From a virus: a DNA stretch of 34,495 bases. The translations under genes and the position numbers were made by a program. Of this stretch, positions 4,244 through 28,276 are shown one piece after another. Each line of letters starts with the position of its first letter. Within the stretch, counting starts at the first letter, position 1. The notes beneath the pieces are model-generated. The model was not told the DNA's origin. It searched no databases and saw only the letters and a program-made list of their open reading frames with translations. The stretch lies in the UHGV virus genome UHGV-0366749; one strand, given 5' to 3'.

Positions 4244-4470
4244 TGGCTGATGCAATGGATCTCGTACAGCAGCGCGTTGAAGAAGAACGCCAGCGCCATA
4301 TCCGTGCAGCCCGTGCCAAATCACCGGGCGTGTCACGCGTACTTTGCATTGAATGTGAAGCGCCAATTCCGCCAGCACGACGCCGCGCCATTCCGGGAGT
4401 GCAGCTTTGCATTACCTGTCAGGAAATCGCAGAACTGAAAGGCAAACATTACAACGGAGGTGCTGTATGA
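4243..4470 (+). CDS. TraR/DksA-family C4 zinc-finger protein
   Basis: CIECEAPIPPARRRAIPGVQLCITCQ, i.e. CxxC-N17-CxxC, typical of phage TraR/DksA-like proteins; RBS GCAGGAG. Confidence 0.7.
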   Translation: MADAMDLVQQRVEEERQRHIRAARAKSPGVSRVLCIECEAPIPPARRRAIPGVQLCITCQEIAELKGKHYNGGAV

Positions 4471-5324
4471 GCACCATCCTGAAATGGGCGGGAAATAAAA
4501 CCGCCATTATGCCAGAACTGAAAAAATACCTTCCTGCTGGCCCGCGACTGGTTGAACCTTTCGCGGGTTCCTGTGCTGTGATGATGGAAACGGATTATCC
4601 CAGCTATCTGGTTGCGGATATTAATCCTGATTTAATCAACCTCTATAAAAAGGTTGCCGCTGATTGTGAATCGTTTATATCTCGCGCCAGAGTTTTATTT
4701 GAGATCGCAAACAGGGAGGTGGCTTATTACAACATAAGGCAGGAGTTTAACTGCTCAACTGAAATTACTGATTTCATGAAAGCGGTATATTTCCTGTATC
4801 TTAATCGTCACGGTTACCGTGGTTTATGTCGCTATAACAAGAGCGGGCATTTCAACATCCCCTACGGTAATTATAAAAATCCGTATTTCCCTGAAAAAGA
4901 ACTTCGCACATTTGCAGAAAAAGCCCAGCGAGCAACGTTTATCTGCGCCAGCTTTGATGAAACGCTGGCGATGTTGAAGGCGGGAGATGTGGTGTATTGC
5001 GATCCGCCGTATGACGGTACGTTTTCCGGCTATCACACTGATGGTTTCACTGAAGATGACCAGTATCACCTGGCATCCGTTCTTGAACATCGGTCATCAG
5101 AAGGACATCCAGTCATTGTTTCTAACAGTGACACATCCCTGATCCGTTCGCTGTATCGCAATTTTACTCACCACTATATCAAGGTAAAACGCAGCATCGG
5201 TGTGGCAGCTGGCGAGGGTAAATCAGCAACAGAAATCATTGCTGTTTCCGGGCCGCGCTGCTGGATGGGATTTGATTATTCGCGTGGCGTGGATAGTTCT
5301 GCCGTGTACGGAGTACGTGCATGA
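4467..5324 (+). CDS. dam: DNA adenine (N6) methyltransferase, Dam family
   Basis: N-terminal ILKWAGNK…PFAGSCAV (AdoMet-binding) and the DPPY catalytic motif; start overlaps the upstream stop (ATGA) and the stop overlaps the gene A start. Confidence 0.85.
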
Positions 5325-8526: not shown

Positions 8527-9726
8527 ATGTATCGTGTGTTGCTTTGGCAAAAAGGAGTTTTAGTGGACAACGGCTCAATCACCTTCTTTGATATTACTGC
8601 TTGTGGGTTTTATCGTTTAAAGAATAAACCCGAAGAGCTTGATTATAAATTCGGCGATCTTATGGGGGTTTTGGACGATTTAGAAGGGTGGCTCAAGGAT
8701 AAAAATTTTGAGCAGACTCTCCCATGGAATAAAGAAGAACAACCTCTGCGAACACGAGTTTACAGTCGAGGCCTTGTGAGGGACAGCCAGACTAAAGATG
8801 CAGTAATTGTTTTATACCGTGAAGTGGGGAACGGTAACGGAATACATGGTATTAAGGTCGGTTCTAAAGTAAGTGGTGATAGTAAAGGAACCATTAGGGC
8901 GGGAAGAGAACATGGTGAGGATAAAATAATTTGGGGTGAACCCTGCTATTACTGGATTATTCCTGAGTTGAATAAAATAGCATCAATCAGATTCCCCCAT
9001 TCTTTCGCTGATACTTATCTCTTCGCACAATACTTCATTCAGCATGTAAATAATAATAGTAAGTTAGGTAAAAGAACGAAATCTAAGCGTACATTTGAAT
9101 CAGCTAAGACCCCTGGTCGTTGTGTGGATGTCTACAATACTAAGTTTCAATATAAAGATGGCAAAAATGAGATAAACTGTATCTTCAAGTTTGTATTGGA
9201 AGAAACAAAACTTAAAGCCGCTGAGGAAAACTTTGAAAGGTTAAGGCATAAAATTACACACACATTGATAAAGGATACAACGGTAATAAACCAAAATGAC
9301 ACAAGGCAACCATTGTTGAAGCTAACAAGTGTAGCTTTAGCATCTCTGGTGGGTGAAGAAAAGCGTAATAAGCTTATTGGGGCACCTCCTGTTTTGGAGC
9401 AGCCTCGTAAAATTGAAGTTAAAATTGACGGTGCACCATCATCGGATGAGCTTCGAAATCTCTTCTCAATGAGAGGTGAAGAGTCTGAATGGGATGTGGG
9501 TTTTTTACTGGCTGATCGTGCTAATCCGGTTTGGCTCAGTAGCTATGTAGCCAGGACTAAACTTCCTCTTCAAGATTCGGATGGGTTTGAGCATTATTCA
9601 GCGCGTTTTTTACTGGATGAAATAAACAAAATTCGTGATGATTTGATTAGTGAAGTAAAATATGCTGAGGAAGCATCCATTAAAGAATCTGAAGCTGCAT
9701 CCACAAAAAAGATAGCGGAAGGTTGA
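8527..9726 (+). CDS. Uncharacterised 399-aa soluble protein, gene 1 of a coupled two-gene accessory cassette
   Basis: Long ORF in a sharply AT-rich island at the P2 tin/old position. An in-frame GTG at 8563 with AAGGAG 5 nt upstream is the more likely start. No Walker A, CD-NTase, reverse-transcriptase or other motif recognised. Confidence 0.7.
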   Translation: MYRVLLWQKGVLVDNGSITFFDITACGFYRLKNKPEELDYKFGDLMGVLDDLEGWLKDKNFEQTLPWNKEEQPLRTRVYSRGLVRDSQTKDAVIVLYREVGNGNGIHGIKVGSKVSGDSKGTIRAGREHGEDKIIWGEPCYYWIIPELNKIASIRFPHSFADTYLFAQYFIQHVNNNSKLGKRTKSKRTFESAKTPGRCVDVYNTKFQYKDGKNEINCIFKFVLEETKLKAAEENFERLRHKITHTLIKDTTVINQNDTRQPLLKLTSVALASLVGEEKRNKLIGAPPVLEQPRKIEVKIDGAPSSDELRNLFSMRGEESEWDVGFLLADRANPVWLSSYVARTKLPLQDSDGFEHYSARFLLDEINKIRDDLISEVKYAEEASIKESEAASTKKIAEG

Positions 9727-9727
9727 T

Positions 9728-10264
9728 ATGACAGAAACGGAAGGTTTGATAATAACAGTTGCAAAACAGCAGGCGATTAATTTTGTTGCTGTTGTTTTGT
9801 GCTGCGTTATAAGCTATTTTTCGTTCAAAAGTTTTTCCTATAATGATGCAAAAGATATTTTAGGTGCGCTTATAAATATTTCAGCATCTATATTCACTAT
9901 TGTCGGTTTATGGGTCGGTTTTTTATATCCGAATGCAATGAATAGTATTGTTAAGGATGATGTAAGTTATATAAAAAATGAGCATGACTCACCAAGAATA
10001 GAGAAATTAGTTTATACAATAATCACATCTGCTTGTGTTATGGCTGGGATTCTAATTTTCTTTTTGGTTAAGGCAGTGTTTTATGCATTACCTGTTTATC
10101 AAGCTAATAAAGACTTGTTTAAATACATTGGTATTTTCTTCATTTACTTTATTAGCTGGATGCAATTAAAATGCGTTATGAGCCTGATTTTGAGTAATTT
10201 ACATTTTGTTAATCACTTACATGGACGTTTAGCAAAAGCGAAATTAGAACACTATGATGAATAA
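9728..10264 (+). CDS. Small membrane protein (178 aa, about four predicted TM helices), gene 2 of the cassette
   Basis: Start overlaps the gene 1 stop (TGATATG); four hydrophobic stretches (e.g. AINFVAVVLCCVISYFSF, LVYTIITSACVMAGILIFFLV); AT-rich. Confidence 0.75.
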   Translation: MTETEGLIITVAKQQAINFVAVVLCCVISYFSFKSFSYNDAKDILGALINISASIFTIVGLWVGFLYPNAMNSIVKDDVSYIKNEHDSPRIEKLVYTIITSACVMAGILIFFLVKAVFYALPVYQANKDLFKYIGIFFIYFISWMQLKCVMSLILSNLHFVNHLHGRLAKAKLEHYDE

Positions 10265-10478
10265 AGTGTTCGTATTGGCAGGAGTTACTGTGGATGTTTA
10301 ACCTCAACAAGAGTAAGCCTCCTTTAACATGGGAATCACCGTTCTAACAAGCTTTGCATGTCTATGCTGCATGAATCCGCATGATCGTTTTAGGATCGTT
10401 TTTGCTGAGGCCCGCCAGAACTGGCGGGCTTTTGCTTATGTCATACACCTGCATGAAAACCACTACATAAAGCGGGCA

Positions 10479-10497
10479 GGCGTGGCGGGGATACGAG
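10479..10497. other. cos: Putative cos cohesive-end site
   Basis: GGCGTGGCGGGGATACGAG; the first 13 nt match the recalled 186 cohesive end GGCGTGGCGGGGAAAGCAT (P2: GGCGAGGCGGGGAAAGCAC); in an intergenic gap where the phage right and left arms should meet. Confidence 0.45.
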
Positions 10498-10542
10498 CGC
10501 GCGCTAACTCATAAATCCTAGATTATTAGTGGATTTATCTCA

Positions 10543-12366
10543 TTGAAATGTGCACTATTCCCAGCATTGAGTTGTACCAGATGTCTTTATGGAGGGACTG
10601 TGGCTTTTGTAACTGATATTCGGCTTGAAGATAATGCTATTGCTGCACCTGCGACAGCACAGGTTATGGCTCAGAGGCTAGGATCTGTATTACGTAAGAG
10701 ATATGAAGAATTCATCCATAAAAGAGAGTGTGCACCAGGCCAAGCAGACTATGATGTAAAAATGGCTAGCAGGGCTTTAGCTGCATTCACTATGTATCAG
10801 TTAGGATGTGTGGATGATAAGTATGCAGGGGAGTCTGTATGTGATAGTAGTGAAGATGGTGGTATAGATGGAATAGCAATCAACCATAACGAAAAAATCG
10901 TTGTTGTTGTTCAATCAAAATTTCACCAATCGGGAAACGGCACTTGGACAAGAGCCGATTTTATGTGTTTTAAGGATGCTTGTGAGAAGCTACAAAGTGA
11001 AAGATACGAATTATTTGATTCCATATTGCAAAATAAAAGCGGGGAAATAAGTGCGGCTTTAAGTAGTTTTGAATACAAGTTCATCTTTGCGATGGCGCAT
11101 ACAGGTAAAAAAGGTGCTGCAGAGGAAATATTAAATGATATGCGGGAATGGCAATATCAATTAAACGCTGCAGCTTTTACACCTGAGGATGAGCCTAAAG
11201 AGAACTGGGGATTTCAGGTTCATTTAATATCCTCTGAAGATATGATGCATTGGTTACAGAATGGCTCTCGAAATCAAATTGATCTTAACAGGGTTGAAAT
11301 TGAGCGTTTTGGATTTTTGAATGAACCATATCAAGCTTTTTACGGGGCTATTAGTGGTGATCAAGTTGCAGAATGGTGGGAAGAGCATGGTGCTCGATTA
11401 TTTACAAAAAACATAAGGAATATGCTTGGTAAAACAGAAGTGAATGAGGAAATAAAAAAGACAGCTATAGATAATCCTGATATGTTTTGGTTTTATAATA
11501 ATGGGATTACTGTACTGGTTAAGGAGGTTGTTCCTCATAGACGAAACGCAGCTCCTAATATAGAGAGAGGGATTTTTGATTTTCGTGATGTAAGTGTAAT
11601 TAATGGTGCACAAACAGTCAGTAGTATTGGCGCATGTAAAGATGCGCTTGGTGAAAACATATATAGACTCAAAGTGCCAGCTAGATTCATTGTTATAGAT
11701 GATGATACTGATAATTTAACTGCAAATGCGATTACAAAAGCTAACAATTTCCAAAATAGAGTATTGGGAAGGGATTTTGCGTCGCAGCAGGCAGATCAAC
11801 ATAGATTGGCAAGGGAGTTAGTGCTTGAAGGATATCAATATCAGTTACTAAGAACAGATGAAGATCATTCACAGACAAATACGAAAGTCATTGACTTGGA
11901 TGAGGCGCTCAATGCACTCGCATGTTTAAGTAAAAATAATACGGTTGTATCGACACTAAAATCAAATCGCGGTAGGTTTTTTGAAAATTTTGAAGGCTCT
12001 CTATATAAAACTATTTTCAATCCAAGATTAAGTGGTTTAAAACTTATCAATACTGTTCTACATTTTAGAGTTATAGATAAGTTGATCGGTAAAACATTAC
12101 TATCAGTAGATAAAACTACCCATAGTCGCAAGCATTTAATTATTACGCATGGTAATAGATACTATGCGTCTGTGCTATTGAGCAACGTTTCTGGGATACA
12201 TAATAGCTCAGAAATTCTTGTTCCAGATGAAAAAAATCTTTCAGAAGAATTAAGTGCATTAATTCAACGTGCTGAAGAGTACATTGAAGATAATTACCCG
12301 AATGCCTATCCGGCAAGATTTTTTGCAAATCCAACGAAAATACAAGAGTTATACGATAATGTTTAA
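10543..12366 (+). CDS. AIPR-like abortive-infection protein with an N-terminal Mrr-like PD-(D/E)xK nuclease motif
   Basis: SEDGGIDGIAINHNEKIVVVVQSKF fits the Mrr catalytic core (DGGIDG…QxK); an NGITVL…INGAQT segment lies mid-protein; AT-rich. Start is uncertain (TTG 10543, GTG 10600 after GGAGGG, or ATG 10666). Confidence 0.7.
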   Translation: MKCALFPALSCTRCLYGGTVAFVTDIRLEDNAIAAPATAQVMAQRLGSVLRKRYEEFIHKRECAPGQADYDVKMASRALAAFTMYQLGCVDDKYAGESVCDSSEDGGIDGIAINHNEKIVVVVQSKFHQSGNGTWTRADFMCFKDACEKLQSERYELFDSILQNKSGEISAALSSFEYKFIFAMAHTGKKGAAEEILNDMREWQYQLNAAAFTPEDEPKENWGFQVHLISSEDMMHWLQNGSRNQIDLNRVEIERFGFLNEPYQAFYGAISGDQVAEWWEEHGARLFTKNIRNMLGKTEVNEEIKKTAIDNPDMFWFYNNGITVLVKEVVPHRRNAAPNIERGIFDFRDVSVINGAQTVSSIGACKDALGENIYRLKVPARFIVIDDDTDNLTANAITKANNFQNRVLGRDFASQQADQHRLARELVLEGYQYQLLRTDEDHSQTNTKVIDLDEALNALACLSKNNTVVSTLKSNRGRFFENFEGSLYKTIFNPRLSGLKLINTVLHFRVIDKLIGKTLLSVDKTTHSRKHLIITHGNRYYASVLLSNVSGIHNSSEILVPDEKNLSEELSALIQRAEEYIEDNYPNAYPARFFANPTKIQELYDNV

Positions 12367-20772: not shown

Positions 20773-21303
20773 TTACGCTCTTAATAAACTTAAATAACTT
20801 TTTATGCTTTGGCAAAAAGGGAAAAGGTCTATTTTAATTTTCCAGTTTTTTTTGTTTTGAACCCCAGAAGCAATAATAGAACCGTCCCAATATTTTATTC
20901 CATTTTTGCCGGTCTTTTTTGTTAACTCAAAACTTAATGCGTGAATAATTTTATTGCAGCATTCGCGTATAGAATCTTTAACATGACCATCTATAACAAA
21001 AAGTATATTTTCATGTTCTTCAAATGCTTCTTTCTCAGGTGAGTAATCTGGGTTCCACTCATGTTCACTAGTGTCTTGGAGAATTCGTAGTTTTGTACAA
21101 AGGCTAATAAGATTGTTGCTAATGGTATATTCCAACCATCCGTTGTACGATAACTCCTCCATTTCAAATTCAGTTACTATAGAACCATCATATACTTTCT
21201 GTGTGGAATATATACGCTGTAAATAAAATTCAGATGAACAGCATAATTGCTCAATTATTCTTGCGTGTTCTTCTATAGCGTAATAATCAATTGGATGGCT
21301 CAT
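20773..21303 (-). CDS. Uncharacterised 176-aa protein encoded by an AT-rich insertion between S and V
   Basis: Reverse-strand ORF in a low-GC block between two conserved late genes. Start set at the second ATG (MSHPIDYY…) after an AAAGG-type RBS; the first ATG is at 21342. No recognised motif and no TM segment. Confidence 0.6.
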   Translation of the reverse strand: MSHPIDYYAIEEHARIIEQLCCSSEFYLQRIYSTQKVYDGSIVTEFEMEELSYNGWLEYTISNNLISLCTKLRILQDTSEHEWNPDYSPEKEAFEEHENILFVIDGHVKDSIRECCNKIIHALSFELTKKTGKNGIKYWDGSIIASGVQNKKNWKIKIDLFPFCQSIKSYLSLLRA

Positions 21304-21334
21304 TCTTTTACCTTTCTTTGATTGGAATTGTATT

Positions 21335-21352
21335 TGTGTCATTTACCACACA
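21335..21352. promoter_or_regulatory. Possible late-promoter TGT-N12-ACA element upstream of V
   Basis: TGTGTCATTTACCACACA, 47-64 bp upstream of the V start; weaker match than the O and FI elements. Confidence 0.25.
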
Positions 21353-23228: not shown

Positions 23229-23826
23229 TCTGCTGCCACCGGGTTCAACTTCACTGGAGCGCCGACTGGCGCAAACCTGTAGCGGGATTTCTGATCTGCA
23301 GGTGCCGCTGCGTGACTTGTGGAATCCGGCTACCTGTCCGGTCAGCTTCCTGCCTTATCTCGCCTGGGCGTTCTCTGTGGATCGCTGGGACGAGGGCTGG
23401 ACAGAAAGCGTCAAACGCCAGGTAGTGAAGGATGCTTTTTATATTCATCAGCATAAAGGAACTACCAGTGCCGTGCGGCGGGTGGTGGAACCGTTCGGAT
23501 TCCTGATCCGCATTATTGAGTGGTGGCAGACCGGAGAAACACCGGGCACGTTTCGCCTGGATATCGGCGTGCAGGACCAGGGCATCACTGAAGATACCTA
23601 TCTGGAACTTGAGCGGCTGATAAGCGATGCCAAACCATGTAGCCGTCACATGATCGGCATGTCCATCAATCTGCAGACCAGCGGTCCGCATTGGGTGGGG
23701 GCCGCCAGCTATCTTGGCGAAGAAATCACGATCTATCCGTATATCAACGAAACAATTATTTCCGGCGGCACCGCGCATGAAGGCGGGGCGGTCCATGTTA
23801 TTGACACAATGAGAGTGAATCCATGA
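23221..23826 (+). CDS. I: Baseplate protein (P2 gpI family)
   Basis: Position between J and the tail-fibre gene, overlapping both. Confidence 0.8.
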   Translation: MNSLLPPGSTSLERRLAQTCSGISDLQVPLRDLWNPATCPVSFLPYLAWAFSVDRWDEGWTESVKRQVVKDAFYIHQHKGTTSAVRRVVEPFGFLIRIIEWWQTGETPGTFRLDIGVQDQGITEDTYLELERLISDAKPCSRHMIGMSINLQTSGPHWVGAASYLGEEITIYPYINETIISGGTAHEGGAVHVIDTMRVNP

Positions 23827-25214
23827 GCACAAAATTTTATACCCTGCTGACGGATATTGGCGCGGCGAAACTTGCCAGCGCCGCCGCGCTCGGTGTGCCG
23901 CTAAAAATTACCCATATGGCGGTGGGCGATGGCGGCGGAACATTGCCAACGCCGGACGCCAAGCAGACAGCATTGGTAAATGAGAAACGCCGGGCTGCGC
24001 TGAATATGCTCTATATCGACCCGCAGAACAGCAGCCAGATTATTGCTGAACAGGTGATCCCTGAAAACGAGGGCGGTTGGTGGATACGTGAAGTGGGCCT
24101 GTTTGATGAGTCCGGGGCATTGATTGCCGTGGGCAACTGCCCGGAAAGCTATAAGCCGCAACTGGCTGAAGGCAGCGGGCGTACCCAGACCGTGCGCATG
24201 GTGCTGATTACCAGCAGCACGGACAATATCACCCTGAAAATCGACCCTGCCGTAGTGCTGGCAACCCGCAAGTATGTGGATGACAAGGTACTGGAGCTGA
24301 AGGTGTACGTGGATGATCAGATGGCAAAACATCTTGCCGCACCGGACCCGCATTCACAGTATGCACCCAAAGAAAGTCCGACGTTTACCGGGACACCAAA
24401 AGCGCCAACTCCAGCGGCAGGGAATAACACCACGCAGGTTGCGACCACCGCGTTTGTTCAGGCGGCACTGACGGCTCTTATTAATGGTGCGCCAGCCACG
24501 CTGGACACGCTGAAAGAAATAGCCGCAGCCATTAACAATGATCCGAATTTCAGTACCACCATTAACAATGCGCTGGCACTGAAAGCGCCGTTGTCGAGTC
24601 CGGCACTCACCGGAACGCCAACAGCCCCCACTGCTGCACAGTCGGTCAACAATACACAGATTGCCACCACGGCTTTTGTGAAATCGGCGATTGCAGCAAT
24701 GGTAGGTTCTGCACCTGCGGCACTGGATACACTGAACGAACTGGCGTCGGCGTTGGGGAATGATCCGAACTTTGCCACGACAATGCTTAATGCGCTGGCA
24801 GGTAAACAACCGCTGGACAATACGCTGACTAATTTGAGTGGAAAGGATGTCGCTGGTCTTCTCGCATTCCTTGGTTTGGGAGAAGCCAGATATGTCATTC
24901 AGCGAGGAGCTAATGCCAATGGTGCGTGGATACGCTGGTCAGATGGTGCAATAGAAGTATTTGGAACTGGTGGTTCCAATGATAATGGGCTGGCTAAAGT
25001 CGTTTATCCAATTGCACTACCTAAGCTTTCACGTTTTATCAGCATAGCGGAAAGAATAAGAACAGATTACGAGGCCACACCTAATAACGTTCACGTTTCA
25101 ATGATCGTGGATGACCAGGTCAGTAATACAGGTTTTTATGTCCGCTGCCAGATGTACGACGGAAGACCATCAACAAGTGCTTTTTCCTGGAGAGTTTATT
25201 GTGCGCCTGTTTAA
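23823..25214 (+). CDS. H: Tail fibre protein (P2 gpH family); C-terminal part lies inside an invertible segment
   Basis: 463 aa with tail-fibre-type internal repeats (…NNTTQVATTAFV… twice); the reading frame crosses the left crossover site at 24871..24890. Confidence 0.85.
   Translation: MSTKFYTLLTDIGAAKLASAAALGVPLKITHMAVGDGGGTLPTPDAKQTALVNEKRRAALNMLYIDPQNSSQIIAEQVIPENEGGWWIREVGLFDESGALIAVGNCPESYKPQLAEGSGRTQTVRMVLITSSTDNITLKIDPAVVLATRKYVDDKVLELKVYVDDQMAKHLAAPDPHSQYAPKESPTFTGTPKAPTPAAGNNTTQVATTAFVQAALTALINGAPATLDTLKEIAAAINNDPNFSTTINNALALKAPLSSPALTGTPTAPTAAQSVNNTQIATTAFVKSAIAAMVGSAPAALDTLNELASALGNDPNFATTMLNALAGKQPLDNTLTNLSGKDVAGLLAFLGLGEARYVIQRGANANGAWIRWSDGAIEVFGTGGSNDNGLAKVVYPIALPKLSRFISIAERIRTDYEATPNNVHVSMIVDDQVSNTGFYVRCQMYDGRPSTSAFSWRVYCAPV
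24871..24890. repeat. Left crossover site of the invertible segment (hix/gix-like)
   Basis: ttggtttgggagaagccaga is the exact reverse complement of 26308..26327; the left copy lies inside the tail-fibre ORF (encoding GLGEAR). Confidence 0.6.
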
Positions 25215-25398
25215 TCCTGTTACTTTGACTGAAGTAATCCCCGGTCTTCATGACGTGACCGGGGCTGTGGAATTACCAGAAGATAACTGGTTTTTTACTG
25301 CATCTGAAATCCCTGAAGGAATGGAAATATCTGTTAACGAGAAGGGCGAACCCATTCTGATTGAGATTAAACCATCTCAGGTGGAACTGGCCAGATAA
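25201..25398 (+). CDS. Putative tail-fibre assembly chaperone (current orientation)
   Basis: Short ORF just after H inside the invertible segment. Start is uncertain (GTG 25201 after GGAGAG, or ATG 25138). Confidence 0.35.
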   Translation: MRLFNPVTLTEVIPGLHDVTGAVELPEDNWFFTASEIPEGMEISVNEKGEPILIEIKPSQVELAR

Positions 25399-25633
25399 CC
25401 CCCGGCGTGGTGCTGGTATCTGATTCCATCACCGCGTCGATATTACCAACATCATATTCAGTCATTTCCGGTTCCGGTGGCGCTATAAACTCTCCGTCAG
25501 AATAGAACCAACCGACGCCTGCATCTATATGATCAATATTTATAATTTCGCAGTTAGAGAATAAATCACCATCTCCATCCCAGATAATAATATTTTTCAC
25601 CACGCCATGTTCAATCAGAGCAAAATTACTCAT
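25367..25633 (-). CDS. Alternative tail-fibre assembly chaperone (Tfa-like), silent in this orientation
   Basis: 88 aa ending …GVIWPVPPEMV, matching the conserved WPxPP C-terminus of Tfa proteins as recalled; GAGGAG RBS. Confidence 0.55.
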   Translation of the reverse strand: MSNFALIEHGVVKNIIIWDGDGDLFSNCEIINIDHIDAGVGWFYSDGEFIAPPEPEMTEYDVGNIDAVMESDTSTTPGVIWPVPPEMV

Positions 25634-26327
25634 CAGGCATACTCCTCAACAATAACTATTCCCGGGGCACCGTCACCTCCCGATTGAGCCTCACTTCCGG
25701 CAGGTGCGCAGGCTCCGCCTCCGCCAGCACCAAAGCCCTCAGCTTTACCACCACCACGTCCGCTGAATGATGAAGAACTTGCACCACCTATACCGCCTGA
25801 ACCTAGTGGTGTATCCCCCCCGGTACCACCTGCAACAGCTTTAACAGAGATAACCATTGCACCTGGTGTTTTTGCACTACAGCGAAATGCTCTTAGTACA
25901 GTACCGGACGATGTCGGACTGGCACCCCATGAAATACCCTGAATATATGATGTGTTTGCAGATGCTCCCCCCGCGCCACCGCCTGTACCACCCGGTGCAG
26001 TTATCAGGGAACCGAAATAAGTTGTGCCACCTTCACTACCTGAATTTCTTCCGGCTCCCCCCCCTTTACCTGCAGCACCGATAATAACGTTGACTTCGAA
26101 ATCATTATCAACCTCGAAAAATGCTTCAATAAATGCACCGCTCAATCCAGCTCCGGCTGTTGCCTGCTGATTTTCTGTTGTTTCTGGAACCCCACCGCCG
26201 CCGCCACCGCCACCAGAGGCAATGACCCTTATCTTTTTTGTCCCTGGTGTTGGGATATATTTTCCAGAGCTTTTAAAAATATTCGTGTTTAACAAACGAC
26301 CAGAGAATCTGGCTTCTCCCAAACCAA
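25633..26327 (-). CDS. Alternative Gly-rich tail-fibre C-terminal exon (promoterless), fused to H after inversion
   Basis: Reverse-strand frame continuous from the right crossover site (encoding GLGEAR in the same frame as H) through a Gly-rich region to the stop at 25633. Confidence 0.55.
26308..26327. repeat. Right crossover site of the invertible segment
   Basis: tctggcttctcccaaaccaa, reverse complement of 24871..24890. Confidence 0.6.
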
Positions 26328-26388
26328 CGTTTATGAAAATGCAGAGATAACGGCTAACTGGCATCATCTCCGGTTTTTATTCAGGGGG

Positions 26389-26961
26389 ATGATCATGCTT
26401 ATTGGCTATGTACGCGTGTCAACAAATGACCAGAACACCGATTTGCAACGTAATGCACTGAACTGCGCGGGATGTGAGCGGATTTTTGAGGATAAAATCA
26501 GTGGCACTAAGTCCGACAGACCGGGGCTGAAAAAGCTGCTCAGGACACTATCGGCAGGAGACACGCTGGTTGTCTGGAAGCTGGACAGGTTGGGGCGCAG
26601 TATGCGGCATCTTGTTACGCTGATAGAGGAGTTGCGCCAGCGTGGTGTGAATTTCCGAAGCCTGACTGACAGTATTGATACCAGTACCCCAATGGGCCGT
26701 TTCTTTTTTCATGTCATGGGTGCCCTGGCTGAAATGGAACGCGAACTGATAGTTGAACGTACTAGGGCAGGGCTGGCTGCAGCTCGTGCCAAAGGCAGAG
26801 TAGGTGGACGCCGTCCTAAGTTGACCACCGAACAGTGGGCACAGATTGGGCGTTTACTCGAGGCCGGAGAATCAAGACAGCGTATTGCACTGATTTTTGA
26901 TGTGGGTGTTTCCACAATTTATAGAAAATTTCCGGCAAATAAGAGTAATGAATCCCCCTGA
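26389..26961 (+). CDS. Serine DNA invertase (Hin/Gin/Cin/Pin family)
   Basis: N-terminal GYVRVSTNDQ… resolvase/invertase catalytic motif with Ser, and a C-terminal HTH; 190 aa. Confidence 0.9.
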   Translation: MIMLIGYVRVSTNDQNTDLQRNALNCAGCERIFEDKISGTKSDRPGLKKLLRTLSAGDTLVVWKLDRLGRSMRHLVTLIEELRQRGVNFRSLTDSIDTSTPMGRFFFHVMGALAEMERELIVERTRAGLAAARAKGRVGGRRPKLTTEQWAQIGRLLEAGESRQRIALIFDVGVSTIYRKFPANKSNESP

Positions 26962-27009
26962 ATCAGCATTATTTTGATTATCCCTGCAAGTAGACAAATA
27001 CCGTCATTT

Positions 27010-27027
27010 TGTGTGAATAACGGTACA
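27010..27027. promoter_or_regulatory. Candidate Ogr-dependent late-promoter element upstream of FI
   Basis: TGTGTGAATAACGGTACA (TGT-N12-ACA), 77-94 bp upstream of the FI ATG. Confidence 0.4.
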
Positions 27028-27103
27028 ACTGCGCTTAGCTGTTTGTCAGGCACAATCACTTCAACATAGGGCGAAGCCTAATCCAATCAGGAGGTTCGCC
27101 ACT

Positions 27104-28276
27104 ATGGCTCAGGATTACCACCACGGGGTGCGCGTTGTTGAAGTCAACGAAGGCACCCGATCCATTACCACGGTGAGCACCGCCATCGTGGGCATGGTCT
27201 GCACGGGCGATGATGCCGATGCAAAAATGTTTCCTCTTAACAAACCTGTGCTGATCACTGATGTGCTGACTGCCAGCGGTAAAGCGGGTGAGTCCGGCAC
27301 GCTGGCCCGTTCGCTGGATGCCATCGCTGACCAGGCAAAACCCGTGACCGTTGTTGTGCGTGTGCCGCAGGGTGAAACGGAAGAAGAAACCACGACCAAT
27401 ATCATCGGTGCAGTGACTGCTGAAGGTAAAAAAACAGGCATGAAAGCTCTGTTATCTGCCCAGTCACAGCTCGGCGTTAAACCGTGCATTCTCGGCGTGC
27501 CAGGTCACGATAACAAAGCCGTTGCGACTGAGTTGCTGAGCGTGGCGCAAAGCCTGCGTGGGTTTGCTTACCTGTCAGCGTATGGCTGCAAGACGGTACA
27601 GGAGGCGATCACTTACCGTGAAAACTTCAGCCAGCGCGAAGGAATGCTGATCTGGCCCGACTTTACTGGCTGGGACACGGTGCTGAATGCCGAAGCAACG
27701 GCATATGCCACCGCCCGTGCACTTGGTCTGCGTGCCAAAATTGATGAGCAGACCGGGTGGCACAAAAGCCTGTCCAACGTGGGCGTGAACGGTGTCACCG
27801 GAATTTCTGCAGATGTGTTCTGGGATCTGCAGGACCCGGCAACCGATGCAGGTCTGCTGAACCAGAACGACGTCACCACGCTTGTGCGTAAAGACGGTTT
27901 CCGCTTCTGGGGTTCCCGCTGTCTGAGCGATGATCCGCTTTTTGCCTTCGAAAACTACACCCGCACGGCGCAGGTGCTGACGGACACAATGGCAGAAGCA
28001 CACATGTGGGCGGTGGATAAACCGCTTAACCCGTCGCTGGCCCGCGACATTATCGAAGGTATCCGCGCCAAAATACGCAGCCTGGTCAGTCAGGGCTATC
28101 TCATTGGTGGTGATTGCTGGCTGGATGAGTCGGTGAACGACAAAGACACGCTGAAAGCCGGAAAACTCACCATCGACTATGACTACACGCCAGTGCCGCC
28201 ACTTGAAAATCTGATGCTGCGCCAGCGCATCACCGATCAGTACCTGGTGAATTTCGCCAGCCAGGTCAGCGCGTAA
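27104..28276 (+). CDS. FI: Contractile tail sheath protein (P2 gpFI family)
   Basis: 390 aa; CAGGAGG RBS; canonical position and P2 FI-like sequence. Confidence 0.9.

Follow-up and report, generated by a model that had tools for sequence, protein, structure and literature searches.

A probable Pin/Cin/Gin-type two-state invertible cassette at the end of tail-fibre gene H of a P2-like Escherichia coli prophage

The virus genome UHGV-0366749, referred to here as the window (the whole stretch of 34,495 nt that was analysed), makes up all of one ENA metagenome contig (ERZ27274558, k141_47883, 34,495 bp) and, judged from its sequence, is a P2-like (Peduoviridae, Cartapus/Fels-2-type) Escherichia coli prophage with a complete P2-type gene set. 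Its tail-fibre gene H very probably ends in a two-state invertible cassette of the Pin/Cin/Gin type. We establish the anatomy of this cassette, its reading frames, the integrity of every part, its homology to characterised systems, and the inversion of near-identical copies in nature and in one laboratory lineage.

Crossover sites, fibre tips and invertase

One perfect inverted repeat of 21 nt, at 24871-24891 (TTGGTTTGGGAGAAGCCAGAT) and 26307-26327, defines the cassette. Its arms are separated by 1,415 nt, and the segment including both arms is a 1,457-bp stretch at the 3' end of the P2-type tail-fibre gene H. Perfect repeats of 21 nt are expected by chance about 1.4e-4 times in 34.5 kb. The runner-up inverted repeats of the region reach 75-88% matches, and the others are imperfect or about 12-13 nt long.

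Comparison with real cix and e14 sites indicates that the 21-nt repeat is an inner half-site plus a 2-bp core, extended inward, with the crossover dinucleotide at its outer edge (24871-72 / 26326-27). The two sites are each 26 bp long, lie in inverted orientation and share the same asymmetric AA core, as do the sites of Hin, Gin, Cin and Pin; this core reads alike in both sites when inverted, a requirement of inversion. As references, cix and gix were taken from the annotated P1 and Mu records, and the e14 sites from E. coli K-12. The right site is the e14 pinE-proximal site (TTCTCCCAAACC-AA-CGTTTATGAAAA) in 26/26 bases. The left site has the same inner half and core as the other e14 site, and its inner half matches P1 cix in 10/12 bases (P1 cixR is TTCTCTTAAACC-AA-GGTATTGGATAA). 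No third crossover site with <=3 mismatches to the 14-nt inner half plus core was found in the whole window, and none with <=4 mismatches in a plausible position within 23800-27100. A shufflon-like system with a third site was rejected on the strength of these scans, and the switch is therefore a two-state one.

The left arm lies in the 463-amino-acid (aa) fibre open reading frame (ORF) at 23823-25214, where it encodes L350-GLGEAR and the crossover TT supplies the second and third bases of the Leu350 codon. The right arm is read in the same frame of a reverse-strand Gly-rich ORF (25633-26367) as ..NVGLGEARFSG... When 24871-26327 is flipped in silico the frame is kept, so that a C-terminal domain of 113 aa is exchanged for one of 230 aa and the fibre lengthens from 463 aa to 580 aa. 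The flipped 580-aa fibre is identical to the annotated fibre of the relative EC5502 at 559/580 positions (96%), and the constant part of H is the same in flipped relatives. With a fixed promoter and N-terminal fibre region outside the segment, and alternative in-frame C-termini on opposite strands inside it, the layout is that of the Mu G and P1 C segments. Each tip is trailed by a small ORF, orf65 behind the expressed one and orf88 behind the silent one.

An AlphaFold2 model of the expressed 113-aa tip has a predicted local distance difference test score (pLDDT) of 82.6, and its best matches among solved structures are the C-terminal domains of the R1/R2 pyocin tail fibres and the gp53 fibre tip of phage AP22 (E = 5e-5 to 4e-4, template modelling score (TM) 0.59-0.68). 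The Gly-rich tip exon is expressed only upon inversion. The silent cassette is free of stops and frameshifts, and against relatives the silent tip shows 8-10 synonymous and 2 non-synonymous substitutions, which points to purifying selection on it. As the two tips are unrelated in sequence, they are likely to differ in receptor specificity.

The invertase ORF begins 68 bp past the right repeat and encodes a small serine recombinase. Pfam detects a Resolvase domain (2.3e-53, residues 5-137) and HTH_7 (1.5e-15, 140-183), PHROG a 'DNA invertase' (1.4e-101), and residues 1-184 align with the Mu Gin structures 3UJ3 and 4M6F (E = 8e-93). The protein is the same as the invertase of phage Cartapus (188/188) and about 75-85% identical to Gin, Cin and PinE (P1 Cin 79%, PinE 157/184). 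Its N-terminus, MLIGYVRVS9TNDQ, contains the catalytic serine, Ser9, whose role has been described in Gin, and it carries the wild-type Met114, the position at which M114V frees Gin from Fis dependence (PMC3575834). Also present are K46/K47/R50 and Q150/R153/L154, the invertase-specific residues for contact with Fis and the enhancer. Their Hin counterparts K47/R48/K51 and Q151/R154/L155 are kept only in Fis/enhancer-dependent invertases (McLean et al., PMC3798978); the one-residue offset to Hin numbering (47/48/51; 151/154/155) was derived from Ser10 in Hin vs. Ser9.

The 5' end of the invertase gene holds a putative recombinational enhancer. In the P1 record the Cin enhancer is annotated at cin +19 to +90, which is the same stretch as 26413-26484 here, and this stretch is identical to P1 in 56/72 bases and to e14 in 63/72. 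It contains two Fis-like sites, which agree with the degenerate Fis consensus in 6/7 and 7/7 of the specified bases and have counterparts at equivalent places in pin, cin and gin. From centre to centre they are spaced by 48 bp, a distance that Johnson et al. reportedly set out as a rule in 1987. Measured from the right crossover point, the proximal site is centred at 97.5 bp; the native Hin enhancer lies at a distance of ~100 bp (PMC3798978). Fis would thus be expected to bind this putative enhancer, and inversion to depend on it.

A sigma-70 promoter and terminator scan of 24700-27150 stayed at background level (3 vs. 2.8 expected; 5 vs. 2.9 expected) and gave no invertase promoter. A perfect 12-nt inverted repeat surrounds the invertase gene (26379-26390, ATTCAGGGGGAT; 26952-26963, ATCCCCCTGAAT), its upstream arm containing the ribosome-binding site. 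The repeat has no conserved counterpart in e14, P1 or Mu and contains mismatches in the relative UC4315, and ~1 such repeat is expected by chance in 6.5 kb; we treat it as chance and not as a functional element.

In the mechanism that we propose, dimers of the invertase would occupy both 26-bp sites (centres 24871/72 and 26326/27), which are inverted relative to each other, and, with host Fis on the enhancer at the start of the invertase gene, would assemble into an invertasome on supercoiled DNA. Ser9 would cut the AA/TT core, and a 180-degree rotation of subunits would invert the 1,457 bp; codons 1-350 of H and the late promoter would keep their place outside the segment. In the present orientation H would end in the 113-aa pyocin-fibre-like foot, followed by orf65; in the flipped orientation it would end in frame in the 230-aa Gly-rich tip, followed by orf88, a miniature Tfa. 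With the tip of H set by orientation, a lysogen population would release two kinds of virion that differ in receptor specificity.

These results support the reading of the region as an invertible tail-fibre segment that had been put forward in an earlier note on this DNA. That note had described repeats bracketing about 1.46 kb, the left one in the tail-fibre ORF and the right one in frame with the reverse-strand Gly-rich exon, with a serine invertase gene following; all of this holds, both arms encoding GLGEAR and the invertase ORF being intact, and the comparison of crossover sites that it had proposed, made here with cix, gix and e14 sites, gave the matches listed above. Its perfect repeats are real, at 21 nt instead of the 20 bp given, and the exchange of C-termini that it put at about 108 and 225 aa occurs in frame in silico with the close values of 113 and 230 aa after residue 350. 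Gin/Hin is correct as the family of the invertase; the enzyme is closest to Pin and Cin and the sites are essentially the e14 'pix' sites, so that the system is Pin-type rather than specifically Gin or Hin.

Inversion among relatives and the state of the window copy

Using megablast with positions 24300-27100 as the query against 5,426 complete E. coli genomes, at a coverage of >= 80%, we found the window orientation in 12 genomes and, with the flipped query, the other orientation in 16; further hits cover only 24871-26327. In EC5502 the flanks align on the opposite strand to the segment, and the alignments overlap exactly in the 21-nt repeats, which places the breakpoints inside them. Among IMG/VR contigs, the junction of the fibre to the short tip was seen in 17 and that to the Gly-rich tip in 5.

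Two sets of records contain the inversion on an otherwise identical background. According to their descriptions, UC4315 and UC4316 are mutants of UC4224. In their deposited form the two sequences disagree at 1,005 positions in 32.8 kb, and flipping the 1,457-bp segment removes every one of these differences; UC4224, the parent, is oriented like UC4316. E. coli 214-4 has two prophage copies ~35 kb apart across the record origin that are identical over 14.8 kb once flipped (NZ_CP025840.1, 11511-26311 and 5115149-5129949, on either side of the origin). A tandem double lysogen could explain this pair, as could an assembly (circularisation) overlap left untrimmed; whichever caused the duplication, both orientations existed in one 214-4 culture. 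The flipping relatives are ~97% identical to the window, have the same 21-nt repeat and encode invertases identical at 185-187/188 residues. E. coli TK3888 (locus L002, 2734-2934) has the same cassette with a truncated invertase pseudogene and diverged outer half-sites, and looks like a natural locked switch. Phase variation of fibre segments has been demonstrated for P2-like prophages of enteropathogenic E. coli (EPEC) and for K-12 e14, with sequencing and PCR in the case of EPEC (PMC4272514), and programmed inversions across bacteria are enriched for fibre genes and for neighbours of P2 'tail protein I' (PMC9881135).

Several points count against an active host-range switch in the window itself. 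The window contig is known in one orientation only. The outer half of its left site reads GGAATG, where every relative examined, including Cartapus, has GGTATG; this private T-to-A change, listed at window position 24861, three bases outside the crossover core, turns a Tyr of the fibre into Phe. An exact 33-mer over the variant is absent from IMG/VR and the JGI metagenomes, about 15 billion collected proteins do not include the exact flipped 580-aa fibre, and the window fibre allele is seen on a single contig only. The partner ORFs are atypically small, orf88 being without the helical part of Tfa and orf65 without the Tfa signature; a difference in host range or receptor specificity between the two forms is a prediction from the tip sequences. 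Flipping of the window copy is likewise something we infer, because neither the 33-mer nor the flipped protein was found in these collections. One alternative, then, is that the architecture is of Pin type and the window copy no longer flips, or does so very rarely, through the private base or an unexpressed invertase, leaving the short foot as a fixed tip. A left-site outer-half base found in the window contig only, a single observed orientation with no flipped product in public protein collections, and no sigma-70-like promoter detected between the right site and the invertase start would all agree with this. We nevertheless consider it improbable: the private base is an A:T to T:A transversion, and the half-site affected deviates from consensus in flipping relatives too (GGTATG vs. 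GGTTT); natural P1 cix and e14 sites likewise couple one good half with one poor half. The invertase matches that of Cartapus at every residue and those of flipping relatives at all but one to three, the right site and the putative enhancer are intact, the silent cassette has kept its frames, and a metagenome assembler gives a single consensus orientation anyway. Because the swap falls in a half-site that is already non-consensus in flipping relatives and the rest is intact, the window copy likely still flips.

Less probable again is a switch that serves the host, in which inversion would make a fibre-derived lysogen protein that masks receptors against superinfecting phages, instead of or besides altering virion host range. 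There is a precedent in e14, where inversion of the P segment by PinQ gives a chimeric StfE2 that blocks T2 adsorption (PMC12529663); moreover, the window cassette also occurs beside pinE in e14-like elements, and the right crossover site is the e14 site. However, H belongs to a P2-type late operon that appears complete and is preceded by a late promoter motif of the Ogr type, so its expression is expected only in lytic growth, and the prophage looks intact, not cryptic, with the relative Cartapus making virions (PMC9928086). To a chance repeat or assembly artefact, with no biological inversion behind it, we give no credence: the contig does come from a metagenome assembly, which is all that speaks for it, but about 1e-4 such repeats would be expected by chance, the two arms fall on canonical crossover sites and fit the reading frames and a neighbouring invertase, and the same architecture occurs in both orientations in dozens of finished genomes, with EC5502, UC4315/UC4316 and 214-4 refuting it.

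Partner proteins of the tips and the surrounding prophage

In the two-state cassette, the ORFs that trail the tips are convergent and overlap at their 3' ends by 32 bp (25367-25398; Table 1). The overlap surrounds the palindrome TGGCCA, which, read on the minus strand, encodes the Trp-Pro in the Tfa tail. In e14 and Cartapus, too, the two tfa genes of a pair overlap in this way, by 29 bp.

The Gly-rich exon and orf88 adjoin, orf88 starting at the stop codon of the exon. The first ~60 aa of orf88 recur in ~130-aa Caudo_TAP members (these homologues match Pfam at 1e-13 to 1e-26), which were recovered by an exhaustive search, a word-indexed search having given close relatives only. Its C-terminus, SDTSTTPGVIWPVPPEMV, aligns with the Tfa tails of TfaE (TDTSTAPDVIWPELPEA), TfaP and Cartapus Tfa, so that both a DTSxAPxxxWPxxPE tail and a position right after the tip gene, as in Tfa, are present. 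The protein gave no match to Pfam Caudo_TAP (PF02413) at E <= 0.01, and in alignment with full-length relatives it is without the central helical segment (~45 aa) of Tfa. Because this helical middle is absent, orf88 is better described as a shortened Tfa derivative than as a regular Caudo_TAP member. Its single-sequence AlphaFold2 model was unusable (pLDDT 37.8).

The other partner, orf65, belongs to a family of conserved 57-73-aa proteins across Enterobacterales (65-83% identity). It matches phrog_5400 (4.7e-23) and, weakly, the tail fibre assembly family phrog_188 (E = 0.0039); Pfam and NCBIfam searches with orf65 gave no match, it does not bear the Tfa signature, and the NCBIfam search of the cassette proteins returned nothing useful. 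Position alone suggests that orf65 acts as a chaperone or assembly factor. The cassette is 98-100% identical among the copies compared, with 2 synonymous and 3-4 non-synonymous changes in orf88 and 0-2 changes in orf65, and these counts are too small for the ratio of non-synonymous to synonymous substitution rates (dN/dS) of either ORF to be informative; orf65 is instead taken to be coding because its protein is conserved among genera. The earlier note had both tips exchange a 'chaperone' upon inversion and had pointed out a WPxPP motif at the end of the reverse-strand ORF. The motif is there, and the Tfa N-domain and tail of orf88 bear out the term for that protein, in shortened form; for the forward orf65, which is without a Tfa signature, the term follows from position only.

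The cassette may use minimal fibre-tip partners, a 65-aa non-Tfa protein for the pyocin-fibre-like foot and an 88-aa mini-Tfa for the Gly-rich tip, and the entire 1.46-kb unit, with the crossover sites as its exact limits, may pass in the manner of a plug-in module between prophages of unrelated types, e14-like and P2-like; we offer this as a tentative and rather doubtful proposal. If orf65 and orf88 suffice for fibre maturation, the helical segment that is thought to grip the fibre would be dispensable for some tips.

Table 1. Positions of the invertible segment, its parts and associated elements in the window
Feature	Position	Strand	Basis
Constant N-terminal part of H (residues 1-349 and first base of codon 350)	23823..24870	+	Pfam Phage_tail_fib, E = 1.5e-65; PHROG tail fibre families
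Expressed tip exon: 113-aa C-terminal receptor-binding 'foot' (residues 351-463)	24873..25214	+	In frame with H
Silent alternative tip exon: 230-aa Gly-rich C-terminal domain	25633..26326	-	Pfam Gly_rich_2 (PF21722), E = 1e-7; phrog_6202 (tail fibre) C-terminus, 1.3e-56
Invertible segment, 1,457 bp	24871..26327	.	Perfect 21-nt terminal repeats; homologues inverted in EC5502, UC4315/UC4316 and 214-4
Left 26-bp crossover site, TTCTCCCAAACC-AA-GGAATGCGAGAA on minus strand, inner half first	24859..24884	-	Core 24871-24872
Right 26-bp crossover site, TTCTCCCAAACC-AA-CGTTTATGAAAA, inner half first	26314..26339	+	Core 26326-26327
orf65, 65 aa, presumed accessory/assembly factor of the expressed tip	25201..25398	+	Position directly 3' of the tip
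orf88, 88-aa 'mini-Tfa' 3' of the silent Gly-rich tip	25367..25633	-	Tfa N-domain and Tfa tail
Serine DNA invertase, Pin/Cin/Gin family, 188 aa	26395..26961 (alternative ATG 26389)	+	Pfam Resolvase, HTH_7
Putative recombinational enhancer, 5' end of invertase gene	26413..26484	.	Fis-like sites 26417-26431 and 26465-26479
TGT-N12-ACA dyad, presumed Ogr-dependent P2-type late promoter element of the V-W-J-I-H operon	21335..21352	+	Motif search; 5' of baseplate gene V
TGT-N12-ACA dyad, presumed P2-type late promoter of the FI-FII operon; end of inserted switch module	27010..27027	+	Motif search; 5' of Pfam-identified tail sheath gene

From left to right, the genes of the window are the integrase and CI repressor, followed by those for replication, portal, terminase, capsid, lysis and the tail module, which runs V-W-J-I-H ... 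FI-FII (sheath-tube)-TAC-E-T-U-D-ogr. Pfam identifies the P2-family tail domains Phage_base_V, GPW_gp25, Baseplate_J, Tail_P2_I, Phage_tail_fib, Phage_sheath and Phage_tube, as in a P2-like tail module. Two TGT-N12-ACA dyads, which we take to be late promoters from what is established about this motif in P2, accompany the V-W-J-I-H and FI-FII operons. The switch module is placed between these two late operons, and as one dyad sits 5' of V, the fibre gene H would be transcribed from outside the invertible segment. Outside that segment, Escherichia phage Cartapus (Elveevirus cartapus) and the window are 99.9% identical in the tail region; Cartapus is a Peduoviridae (Elveevirus) prophage in E. 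coli LF82 that is induced spontaneously and makes particles (PMC9928086).

Away from the tail module, candidate anti-phage genes occupy the variable region from the replication/DinI genes to the portal gene (8527-12366), a typical P2 accessory hotspot: ORFs at 8527-9726 and 9728-10264 match PADLOC PDC-M18A (5.9e-31) and PDC-M18B (2.8e-18), and the ORF at 10543-12366 matches AbiU (7e-25) and Pfam AIPR (7e-35). Tail gene S and baseplate gene V are separated by a 189-aa ORF on the opposite strand (20773-21342, -) for which Pfam and PADLOC searches gave no match; Cartapus and UC4315 have other hypothetical genes at this spot, which is therefore probably a second accessory (moron) slot. The early region encodes a Dam-type D12 N6-adenine methyltransferase (4407-5324; Pfam 2.7e-75, PADLOC orphan methyltransferase 1.6e-110).

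Module exchange and relation to known invertible segments

Tail-fibre segments inverted by Gin/Cin/Pin enzymes have belonged to textbook knowledge since the 1980s. P2-like prophages with such segments are already annotated in GenBank and known to phase-vary, so the discovery value is small; the miniature partner proteins and the private base in one site are the only points that are mildly unusual. The practical consequences lie in annotation. Stand-alone 'hypothetical' or 'glycine-rich domain' ORFs beside an invertase in many E. coli genomes are silent fibre exons, and the 463-aa and 580-aa fibres of one prophage are two states of a single gene, which host-range prediction and prophage typing should follow. 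As the comparison of sibling strains shows, direct evidence of active inversion can also be sought in finished genomes that are public.

Three observations indicate that the cassette behaves as an exchangeable module. The window segment is 99.9% identical to that of EC5502, whereas the flanks are only 95-96% identical; Cartapus, with flanks 99.9% identical to the window and an identical invertase, has another cassette pair (Tfa of 139 and 131 aa, YfdL-like tip); and in e14-like elements of other E. coli the window cassette is found ~98% identical beside pinE, with homology beginning at the crossover site. Mosaicism of such fibre genes has long been known, and cassette exchange is consistent with it. 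In ECE228 (locus L011, 2223-4589) and Res13-Sevr-PER07-33 (locus L013, 2223-4586), both e14-like, the same two-tip cassette is fused to a StfP-type N-terminus beside pinE.

Of the characterised systems, the e14 P segment with PinE in K-12, which Plasterk and van de Putte are said to have described in 1985, is like the window in its crossover sites (the right one base for base, the left in its inner half and AA core), in its invertase and in its enhancer region, with the identities given above. The layout is also the same, with a constant fibre N-terminus, two convergent cassettes of tip and partner, and the invertase gene last. In contrast, the host element of the window is a P2-type myovirus prophage, with an H that has the Phage_tail_fib N-terminus, and not e14, and the 1.8-kb segment of K-12 e14 holds other cassettes, StfP/TfaP and StfE/TfaE, whose Tfa proteins are full-size (137-200 aa).

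The G segment of Mu with Gin and the C segment of P1 with Cin likewise have a fixed promoter and fibre N-terminus, with alternative C-termini and assembly genes on opposite strands, and a serine invertase that depends on Fis and on an enhancer in its own 5' coding region, as is presumed for the window; the site consensus is common to all. The window segment is smaller (1.46 kb vs. 3.0 kb in Mu and 4.2 kb in P1) and its inverted repeats are shorter. Its tips, a pyocin-fibre-like foot and a Gly-rich domain, are unrelated in sequence to those of Mu and P1, and its partners have 65 and 88 aa vs. about 175 aa.

Segments of P2-like prophages (Cartapus/LF82, Fels-2 and EPEC E2348/69) share the insertion point of the window, which lies between fibre gene and sheath gene. 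One EPEC prophage has three sites and four variants, whereas the window has two sites and two variants. Hin and hix of Salmonella flagellar phase variation resemble the window in enzyme family, 26-bp sites, a Fis enhancer (putative in the window) ~100 bp from one site and the Fis/enhancer-contact residues (PMC3798978). Hin, however, flips a promoter and has its own gene inside the segment, whereas in the window the invertase gene lies outside and coding exons are swapped.

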